Shown piece by piece: positions 34,658-37,114 of a DNA stretch of 64,000 nt. The notes beneath the pieces were generated by a model that saw only the letters and a program-made list of their open reading frames with translations, ran no database searches and was not told where the DNA came from. A program made the position numbers and the translations under genes. Origin of the DNA: Planctomycetota bacterium (GTDB lineage: Bacteria; Planctomycetota; UBA8742; UBA2392); assembly GCA_020848275.1 (NCBI GenBank), contig JADLAK010000077.1, positions 7,606 to 71,605 on the forward strand, written 5' to 3'. Numbering within the stretch: position 1 is the first letter of the stretch; each line of letters starts with the position of its first letter.

Positions 34658-35023
34658 TTAATAGTCGACAGGCACTTCCTCGAACTTGGTCACGCCATGG
34701 CCGCTGTCCTTCAGGGCTTTCTCGACGGCTTCCTGGGTCATCTCACTGCGGCGCTTCATTGTGATAGTCGCAATTTTGCCGTCGATGGTCACGTCGGACA
34801 CGCCCGCGATGGTCTTGAGCAGGTCCTCGACTTTCTTGATCGTGTCGGCGTCTTTCATCTCGCCGGAAATCTCGATGCTGTAAACGCGCGACGGCTGCGG
34901 GCGGCAACAGGCGCAGATCAGGCCGGTCTGGGCTTCACCGCCGGTGACGGCCGGGAACGCCGAGAGGCTCTGGGTTCCAAGAATCGCAAAAGCAAACATT
35001 GCGGCGAAGAAGGTGTTGCGCAT
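34658..35023 (-). CDS. Exported HMA-fold protein lacking the canonical CxxC
   Basis: Signal peptide. YSIEISGEMKDADTIKKVEDLLKTIAGVSDV aligns to the HMA fold with MxCxxC replaced by MKDADT. A CACC motif precedes the domain. Confidence 0.7.
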   Translation of the reverse strand: MRNTFFAAMFAFAILGTQSLSAFPAVTGGEAQTGLICACCRPQPSRVYSIEISGEMKDADTIKKVEDLLKTIAGVSDVTIDGKIATITMKRRSEMTQEAVEKALKDSGHGVTKFEEVPVDY

Positions 35024-36188: not shown

Positions 36189-36629
36189 TCAACCCTTTGG
36201 TGGAGGTTGAGCAGCCTCTGGTTTTTCCTTTGTGGGCTCTTTCTTGGCCTCTTCCTTGACCTGCTCAAAGGACGTGACGCTGAGGCCGTCTTTGGAGTTC
36301 TTCACGGCTGTCTCTACGACCTCTTTGGTCAATGTCTTTCCGGGCTTGGTGACGATCACCGCGGTTTTGTCTTTCAATGTGACAACTACGCTGTTCACGC
36401 CATCCAGGCTGGTAAGGGCGGTCTTGGCCGCCTTGACTCACATACCTCAGGACATCCCGTCAATGATGACCTTGTAGGTTGTTGGCGCCGCCGCACCATC
36501 CGCTTTGGCAGTTTCAGGTTTGTCGGTCGCCTTTGGGTCACTTGCGGCGTCGCCGGCAAAAGCGACGTTAGCCCCGAGGAGAGCGATACCTAACGCGAGG
36601 ATAAAGATGAACTTCAGAAACGATGCCAT
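36189..36629 (-). CDS. Exported HMA-domain putative selenoprotein with two in-frame TGA (GMS-U-GM-U), 146 aa
   Basis: ORF-track fragments 36447-36629 and 36189-36398 are in one frame. Joined they read YKVIIDGMS*GM*VKAAKTALTSLDGVNSVVV, an HMA domain with TGA (36447-36449, 36438-36440) at both Cys positions. GGAGA RBS, signal peptide. Confidence 0.88.
36396..36434 (-). promoter_or_regulatory. Candidate bacterial SECIS hairpin pair
   Basis: mRNA after the UGAs: AAGGCGG-CCAAGA-CCGCC(C)UU, then CA-GCC-UGGAU-GGC-(G)UG. Confidence 0.55.
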
Positions 36630-36667
36630 GAGTTTTCTCCAACCGGTCTAACGTTAGAAACGAGGGG

Positions 36668-37114
36668 CTACTTCACGCCGTGTGACGCCTTCAGCGCCGC
36701 CCAGTCCCCATTGCGATCTTCCTTGAGGCTGACCAGTCCGTATCCGAAGTCGTCTTCAATACTTTTCTTGAGTGACTCGTACTCAAGCTTCGCCTTTTCG
36801 TTACCGTGCAAATAGATGTTGAATTCCTCGATGACGGTGAAAGCGTCGGTTATCCCTTCCAGGGATAGCAGGGCGTCAACGACGCCCGTGGCTCAGCCGC
36901 CTCAGTCCATGCCGGTGATGCCCAGGATATAGATGACATCCTTGCTTGTCGGCTTAGGCGGTTTGGGCAGGGGTTCGGGCGTCGGCTCGGGCTCGGGTTT
37001 TTCGACGCCGCCGCCTCCTTTGCGGAACTCGATGGGCGTCAGGTCTTCAACGGTGATCTGGCAGCCCGCGATCAGGAACGCGATTGAAGCCAGCAGCGAC
37101 AAACCGTGCTTCAT
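36668..37114 (-). CDS. HMA-domain lipoprotein, putative selenoprotein with two in-frame TGA (GMD-U-GG-U), 148 aa
   Basis: Lipobox LIAGC and Pro-rich linker, then IYILGITGMD*GG*ATGVVDALLSLEGITDA. TGA at 36902-36904 and 36893-36895. The frame stays open to TAG 36668-36670. AAGGA RBS. Confidence 0.88.
36851..36887 (-). promoter_or_regulatory. Candidate bacterial SECIS hairpin pair
   Basis: Two perfect 7-bp stems right after the UGAs: GGGCGUC-GUU-GACGCCC and UAUCCCU-GGA-AGGGAUA. Confidence 0.65.

Follow-up and report, generated by a model that had tools for sequence, protein, structure and literature searches.

We analyzed a 64,000-nucleotide stretch of a Planctomycetota MAG, hereafter called the window. 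Two genes on its minus strand form complete open reading frames when TGA is read as selenocysteine (Sec, U). Gene B (CDS 37114-36668) encodes a lipoprotein-type HMA selenoprotein with the motif GMD-U-GG-U, and gene A (CDS 36629-36189) encodes an exported HMA selenoprotein with the motif GMS-U-GM-U. The first and second Sec codons, designated as UGA1 and UGA2, are located at 36904-36902 and 36895-36893 in gene B, and at 36449-36447 and 36440-36438 in gene A. The true stop of gene A is a third TGA (36191-36189). The in-frame TGA pairs occupy the Cys positions of the HMA motif GMxCxxC. A Cys paralog on the same strand (36005-35367), in which CxxC is present as MCCAGC, was used as an internal control. 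A MerR-type regulator lies near these three genes, and the cluster is referred to as MerR-linked. A further HMA-like ORF (34667-34885, minus strand) is located downstream of the Cys paralog; CxxC is absent from its usual place in this ORF (ISGEMKDAD...).

The Pfam HMA model (PF00403) matched gene A at 39.3 bits, above the gathering cut-off of 24.8, and gene B at 23.8 bits, slightly below it. UxxU HMA-type selenoproteins are already known as NF041115 (UxxU_metal_bind), or as "putative mercuric reductase" in reviews. Genes A and B share with NF041115 the HMA fold and the replacement of both Cys of GMxCxxC by Sec, but differ from it as exported or lipoprotein forms encoded in a MerR-linked cluster. 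Because they scored 43.8 and 20.4 bits against the NF041115 cut-off of 95, they are relatives rather than members of this family. Searching a database of 5.8 billion proteins with the gene A protein returned no matches, presumably because gene callers truncate such genes at TGA, and an Rfam scan of the region gave chance-level matches only. A single tRNA-Sec and a single SelB (contig C36:92145-94010; 306 bits to TIGR00475) were found in the host assembly, which is 88% complete, so that a tRNA could be missing from it. A second match to the tRNA-Sec model, considered as a possible tRNA-ReC, was an ordinary tRNA-Ser(UGA).

An earlier reading of this DNA, made from the sequence only, had described twin hairpins at identical spacing after the UGA pair of both genes, and both hairpins were found at the positions it gave. 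In gene B, the proximal hairpin H1 (36887-36871, minus strand; GGGCGUC-GUU-GACGCCC) has a 7-bp stem, a GUU triloop and a folding energy of −11.6 kcal/mol. Its stem starts at +15 after UGA1, as had been described, and 5 nt after UGA2, and its loop starts 21 nt from UGA1 and 12 nt from UGA2. The distal hairpin H2 (36867-36851, minus strand; UAUCCCU-GGA-AGGGAUA) has a 7-bp stem and a GGA triloop starting 41 nt from UGA1 and 32 nt from UGA2; the previously noted UGGA lies at +41 to +44. In gene A, H1 (36432-36417, minus strand; GGCGG-CCAAGA-CCGCC; −8.1 kcal/mol) has its loop start 19 nt from UGA1 and 10 nt from UGA2, and it becomes part of a long stem including UGA2 when the minimum-energy fold is computed. 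H2 of gene A (36409-36399, minus strand; GCC-UGGAU-GGC; −3.1 kcal/mol), with its loop start 40 nt from UGA1 and 31 nt from UGA2, has a 3-bp stem and is absent from the minimum-energy fold. Counting the U of UGA1 as 0, H1 spans approximately 17-33 and the H2 loop 43-47 in both genes. This identical spacing is present but is not independent evidence, because it follows from homology: in both HMA proteins, L-[DE]-G follows the second U after the same number of residues. The caveat of the sequence-only reading that the L-[DE]-G codons partly dictate the UGGA loop also applies (CUG-GAW-GGN).

We compared the hairpins with the bSECIS model, the consensus of Zhang and Gladyshev, in which the apical loop is 16-37 nt from the UGA, the upper stem has 4-16 bp, and the minimum free energy is −7.5 kcal/mol or lower (PMC13188914). 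As in bSECIS elements, the hairpins are located in the coding region directly 3′ of a Sec UGA. H1 of gene B agrees with the model for UGA1 in spacing, stem, energy and its GUU loop, and its 12 nt to UGA2 fall outside the range. H2 of gene B is inside the range for UGA2 and outside it for UGA1. Its stem length is within the model, and its energy is borderline (−7.1 kcal/mol for the hairpin alone and −8.1 kcal/mol for the 27-nt region). The GGA loop conforms to the bSECIS loop rule, and G[G/U]N is found at this place in 24 of 24 orthologs. In general, H2 resembles a bSECIS element in its 3-5 nt loop starting with G[G/U], its 6-7 bp stem and its 31-32 nt to UGA2. The loop UGGAU of gene A H2 and its spacing to UGA2 do fit the model, whereas its short stem and low stability fall below the 4 bp and −7.5 kcal/mol of the model. 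H1 of gene A departs from the loop rule, as CCAAGA has no G in its first two positions. The arrangement as a whole is unlike bSECIS in that two adjacent conserved hairpins are present, the 40-44 nt between UGA1 and H2 are out of range, and the loop G is missing from most H1 sequences.

Above-chance structure was indicated weakly by the window alone and strongly, for gene B, by its relatives. Dinucleotide-shuffle z-scores in the window ranged from −0.7 to −2.0. Among 300 synonymous recodings, 4 were as stable as native gene B, and 108 were as stable as native gene A, which is not significant. To collect relatives of gene B, we performed six-frame searches of the order and class, which yielded an ortholog in 21 of 30 genomes, and scans of metagenomes and genome collections, which brought the set (family B) to 24 full sequences. 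All 21 genome orthologs carry two TGAs and none carries Cys. Throughout the 24 sequences, both UGAs are conserved as TGA, the frames are intact, and the same two-hairpin fold is present.

Covariation among homologs, which the sequence-only reading had proposed as a check, was found in family B. In the alignment, 90.7% of pair cells were paired and 23 cells were changed on both sides in a compensatory manner; 0 of 500 shuffles reached the covariation score, and sliding the pair partners as a control lowered pairing to 33-55%. H1 was paired in 98.8% of cells across 23 orthologs, with changes of G-C to A-U (three times), G-C to C-G, and C-G to G-C. The G-C to A-U change corresponds to a V to I replacement combined with GAC to GAU. 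V to L and D to Q replacements in L073, the most distant ortholog, invert two H1 pairs and leave the stem intact. H2 was paired in 82.6% of cells. It covaries at the loop-closing pair, which is A-U, G-C or U-A, and at the outer pairs, and in three orthologs its register is shifted to GCCC-GGUC-GGGC. The loop G of H2 is a synonymous site of CUG, CAG or CGG, yet all 24 sequences retain it, and the first base of the codon following the loop-G codon is invariably G or U, with six different amino acids encoded there. Third-position entropy is approximately 0 bits at the stem codons (ACG, GGC, GCC, UCC, CNG, GGG) and 1.2-1.9 bits outside the stems, invariant residues included. Native folds averaged approximately −21 kcal/mol versus approximately −14 kcal/mol for synonymous recodings, a difference of approximately 7 kcal/mol. 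By covariation and synonymous-site constraint, family B is a conserved structured RNA. RNAalifold gave no support to a three-way junction in which a conserved lower stem encloses H1 and H2, and this structure was rejected.

In H1, a G is present in the first two loop positions in 9 of 24 family B sequences and G[G/U] in 8 of 24; other loops include AUG, AUU, AUA and AAUGG. The bSECIS loop rule is thus not followed by H1 across the family, though the window's own GUU agrees with it. In the clade of gene B (8 sequences), the H1 loop is GUN, as in the SECIS elements of the local peroxiredoxin and thioredoxin genes. We rejected by inspection a small alternative fold that would place GGGC in the H1 loop; this hairpin has only 3 bp and competes with the covarying 7-bp stem.

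The relatives of gene A (family A) are mostly U-x3-U proteins and likewise have H1 (GGUC-N5-GACC or variants) and H2. Their H2 is stronger than that of gene A (UCCAGCC-UGGAW-GGC(G)UGGA, −8 to −10 kcal/mol). The mean excess stability of family A over synonymous recodings was −3.8 kcal/mol, smaller than that of family B. A G[G/U] loop occurs in H2 of 14 of 15 family A genes and in H1 of 6 of 15. Across both families, H1 loops without G[G/U] include AUG, AUU, AUA, AAAAA, CCAAGA and similar sequences. H1 of gene A itself is formed by different pairs from those of its relatives and is shifted by approximately 1.5 nt, and comparison of these sequences suggests that a hairpin at the place of H1, rather than a particular sequence, is maintained. 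The Sec signal of gene A looks degenerate. Two tandem-HMA proteins (L012 in G003 and L017 in G010) contain two U-x3-U/C motifs in a single frame, so that each protein has three or four Sec codons, and each motif is followed by its own pair of H1 and H2.

We next considered Cys and single-Sec homologs. The sequence-only reading saw no equivalent hairpins after CxxC in the Cys paralog. This held in the folding analysis, in which the paralog showed no excess structure at the place of H1 (−1.4 versus −3.4 kcal/mol in synonymous recodings) or H2 (−2.8 versus −1.9 kcal/mol). CxxC homologs beside the gene B orthologs also had no excess structure at either hairpin place, so that equal hairpins, which would have spoken against the earlier proposal, were absent from the Cys-encoding homologs. 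H2 is missing in Cys homologs that have L-x-G-V. In L028, a UxxC member, only the proximal hairpin is present, with a GGUGC loop 16 nt after its UGA, and 15 of 300 synonymous recodings were as stable in this region. In single-Sec UxxC and UxxxC HMA genes of other lineages, one SECIS with a GGUC loop occupies the place of H1, 19-25 nt from UGA1. A search with NF041115 across 401 Planctomycetota genomes detected mostly Cys HMA domains of P-type ATPases, and the few TGA-bearing matches were retrieved for comparison. The HMA gene adjoining the gene B orthologs (L027, L028, L029) encodes CxxC in most genomes, with two exceptions that encode UxxC. A long-range stem with a compensated pair (GGCGAC/GUCGCC versus GGCCAC/GUGGCC) is common to L029 (UxxC) and L027 (CxxC), which hints at a recent Sec/Cys switch in this gene.

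In families A and B, the H1 loop starts 19-25 nt from UGA1 and 10-13 nt from UGA2, and the H2 loop starts 40-44 nt from UGA1 and 31-32 nt from UGA2 (35 nt in two close orthologs). Each hairpin therefore agrees with the published spacing of 16-37 nt for a single UGA. The whole of H1 is 3′ of UGA2, with its start 5-6 nt after UGA2 and its end 1-3 nt before H2, and its loop spacing to UGA2 is below every SECIS spacing observed here. A genome-wide scan for in-frame TGAs with coding potential on either side gave seven single-Sec genes, including thioredoxin-like UxxC and peroxiredoxin TxxU genes. Each has one clean hairpin with a GUU, AGUU, AGGUC, UGGAC, GGA or GGC loop. Loop starts are 16-18 nt, and stem starts approximately 7-11 nt, downstream of the UGA.

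Other double-UGA genes (UU, U-x4-U, UxxU and UxxxU) have a single canonical hairpin with both UGAs within 17-36 nt. In the adjacent-UU thioredoxin/TPR genes, one GGA-loop hairpin is 20 and 17 nt from UGA1 and UGA2, and it recurs in three genes with compensated stems. These genes have the motif GGG-U-U-G (G000 contig C48 24086 and 21252, L159 and L174; also L160), and a third paralog between the two C48 genes has U-V-P-C. A "UU" candidate on contig C68 was rejected because it looks like a double stop at a gene junction, which we take to be fliE/fliF. In the rhodanese-like U-x4-U genes, whose two TGAs are kept in 23 genomes of the family, a single conserved hairpin (CGGCC-CGUGC-GGYCG) lies 36 nt from UGA1 and 21 nt from UGA2. 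We considered a separate proximal SECIS for UGA1 in these genes and rejected it, as no conserved or excess proximal structure was found. Their active-site loop is VFY-U-xGYx-U (G000 contig C41 40015, L089; orthologs L090-L111), and C-x4-U paralogs share the single hairpin. In thioredoxin-like UGPU genes (L171 and L177 in G002, of a sister family), which occur where other genomes have WUGPC, one GGUC-loop hairpin was read by eye from the sequences at 31 and 22 nt; in one UGPC form (L165), the SECIS loop is 17 nt from the UGA.

A third HMA family with the motif GIT-U-xG-U (G000 contig C41 38725, L078; L079-L087 and L010) combines a canonical hairpin, whose GGA or GGC loop is 32 nt from UGA1 and 23 nt from UGA2, with an additional proximal hairpin containing UGA2. 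Its UxxC members retain both hairpins, and UxxC paralogs have the motif GFL-U-M[GQ]-C. As the ORFs of this family stop at a TGA directly after ...IHG[HP]G, a further Sec codon and a downstream domain are possible. In UxxxU HMA genes from other Planctomycetota families, the canonical loop is 34-35 nt from UGA1 and 22-23 nt from UGA2, and UGA2 lies in the loop of a first hairpin. In the GIT and L150/L151 families, the distal canonical hairpin is three codons further upstream in the protein alignment; thus, the distal hairpin is not tied to one protein motif. Among the Sec genes found here, more than 37 nt from the canonical hairpin to UGA1 occurred only in families A and B, and among the double-UGA genes, only these two families have H1 wholly downstream of UGA2.

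Covariation, synonymous-site constraint and absence in Cys homologs support the conclusion that H1 and H2 are real, selected RNA elements tied to the UGA codons. The same evidence excludes, for gene B and most family A members, that the hairpins are functionless accidents of GC-rich coding sequence. This explanation draws on the modest shuffle z-scores in the window and, in gene A, on hairpins no stabler than in synonymous recodings and an H2 of 3 bp; it is very improbable overall and may hold for gene A only. We also consider it highly unlikely that the UGAs are not Sec codons, being read as Cys by a SelB-dependent, tRNA-ReC-like tRNA or belonging to broken genes. tRNA-ReC is enriched in genomes with UXXU hydrogenases (PMC13582414), but a single tRNA-Sec was found in the 88% complete host assembly, the other model match was tRNA-Ser, and both TGAs are conserved in intact frames in the 24 orthologs. 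There is similarly little to be expected of H1 acting alone as the SECIS for both UGAs, with H2 as a side effect of codon conservation at L-[DE]-G-[VI]. This would agree with the greater strength and conservation of the H1 stem, with the use of one hairpin for two UGAs in the UU genes and with the partial dictation of the UGGA loop by CUG-GAW-GGN. However, H2 covaries at its loop-closing and outer pairs and keeps its loop G at a synonymous site in 24 of 24 sequences, and it is missing from Cys homologs with L-x-G-V. In addition, the distal hairpin of the GIT and L150/L151 families sits three codons upstream, and the H1 loop at 10-13 nt from UGA2 is closer than any spacing observed here.

From the spacings, conservation, covariation and loop statistics, we tentatively favor a model, which we rate at slightly less than even likelihood, in which H2 is the SelB site and H1 is a stem-dependent helper. 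Its rival is a strict dual SECIS, in which H1 loads SelB-GTP-Sec-tRNA for UGA1 and H2 loads a second complex for UGA2, two complexes being pre-loaded within three codons. This arrangement, close to the one hairpin per UGA of the sequence-only reading, is rather unlikely across the families but is a serious rival, above all for the window's gene B, whose H1, with 7 bp and a GUU triloop, resembles the peroxiredoxin and thioredoxin SECIS elements of the genome. Part of the one-per-UGA proposal was supported: for each hairpin, one UGA alone falls within 16-37 nt, and H1 occupies exactly the position of the sole SECIS of single-Sec UxxC HMA genes, including L028. The position of H1, together with the GUN loops in the clade of gene B, which fit a true second SECIS, counts against the favored model, and the rival also draws on the fact that all other one-hairpin double-UGA genes have both UGAs within 17-36 nt. 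The other part was not supported. H1 has no G in its first two loop positions in 15 of 24 gene B orthologs, and lacks the SelB-type G[G/U] in 16 of 24 family B sequences, in 9 of 15 family A genes and in gene A itself, while every other canonical SECIS observed in this analysis carries the loop G. The number of hairpins also does not track the number of UGAs, since UxxC members of the GIT family have two hairpins for one UGA, and UU, U-x4-U and other UxxU/UxxxU genes have one canonical hairpin for two. We prefer the stem-dependent helper because the H1 loop so often lacks G[G/U] although the H1 stem is the best conserved. G[G/U] is present in the H2 loop in 24 of 24 and 14 of 15 sequences, compared with 8 of 24 and 6 of 15 for H1, and one canonical hairpin serves two UGAs in other genes. 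Against this preference, the rhodanese-like genes tolerate 36 nt without a helper, so that 40-44 nt might be tolerated too.

In the favored model, both hairpins would be parts of the selenocysteine recoding signal of the UxxU genes with different jobs. H2, with its 6-7 bp stem and G[G/U]N loop, would be the putative SelB-binding SECIS, and H1 would work through its stem, not through a SelB-type loop. Folding of H1 is proposed to make the distant SECIS usable, either by removing approximately 17 nt from the path between the UGAs and H2, or by acting as a recoding-stimulating structure at the ribosome entrance by analogy with the eukaryotic Sec redefinition element (SRE). H1 was probably derived from the ancestral single SECIS of UGA1 that UxxC HMA genes hold at the same place. 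In gene B of the window, H1 may also load SelB for UGA1, as its GUU loop is still canonical.

According to the classical view from E. coli, a single SECIS serves a single UGA from a fixed distance. The decoding of two UGAs a few codons apart in bacteria is an open question, explicitly so in a 2026 study of UXXU [NiFeSe] group 4 hydrogenases, in which one SECIS was predicted and proposed to serve both UGAs and the decoding mechanism was left open (PMC13582414). The HMA genes are similar in having two UGAs 9 nt apart in a metal-binding CxxC-type motif, but here a covarying second hairpin lies between the UGAs and the canonical one. The proteins themselves are of a known kind, but the literature covered describes neither a conserved Sec signal of two hairpins following UxxU nor the apparent range rule. 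It is more likely than not that an out-of-range SECIS at closely spaced Sec codons is rescued by a second dedicated element, either a second SelB-loading SECIS or a new bacterial class of loop-independent helper. If true, either outcome would be a previously undescribed two-part bacterial Sec insertion signal. We know of no bacterial precedent for a loop-independent helper hairpin. In eukaryotes, the SRE of SEPN1 and similar genes is a conserved stem-loop approximately 6 nt after the UGA that works with a distant SECIS. The putative helper H1 starts 5-6 nt after UGA2, a likeness of position only, with no homology implied between elements of different domains of life.

The UU, UxxU, UxxxU and U-x4-U genes, together with their UxxC and CxxC relatives, form a natural series within single genomes with SECIS-UGA spacings of 16 to 44 nt. 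Two families with a second conserved hairpin and compensatory changes make the question directly testable. For annotation, SECIS-based software that assumes a single hairpin within 37 nt when searching for selenoproteins would score UGA1 of these genes wrongly. The region preceding UGA1 of gene B (36905-36913, GGC AUG GAC) was also conserved at the nucleotide level: the codons flanking Met are near-invariant synonymously (0 and 0.25 bits in 24 orthologs), suggesting that the context 5′ of UGA1 is constrained.
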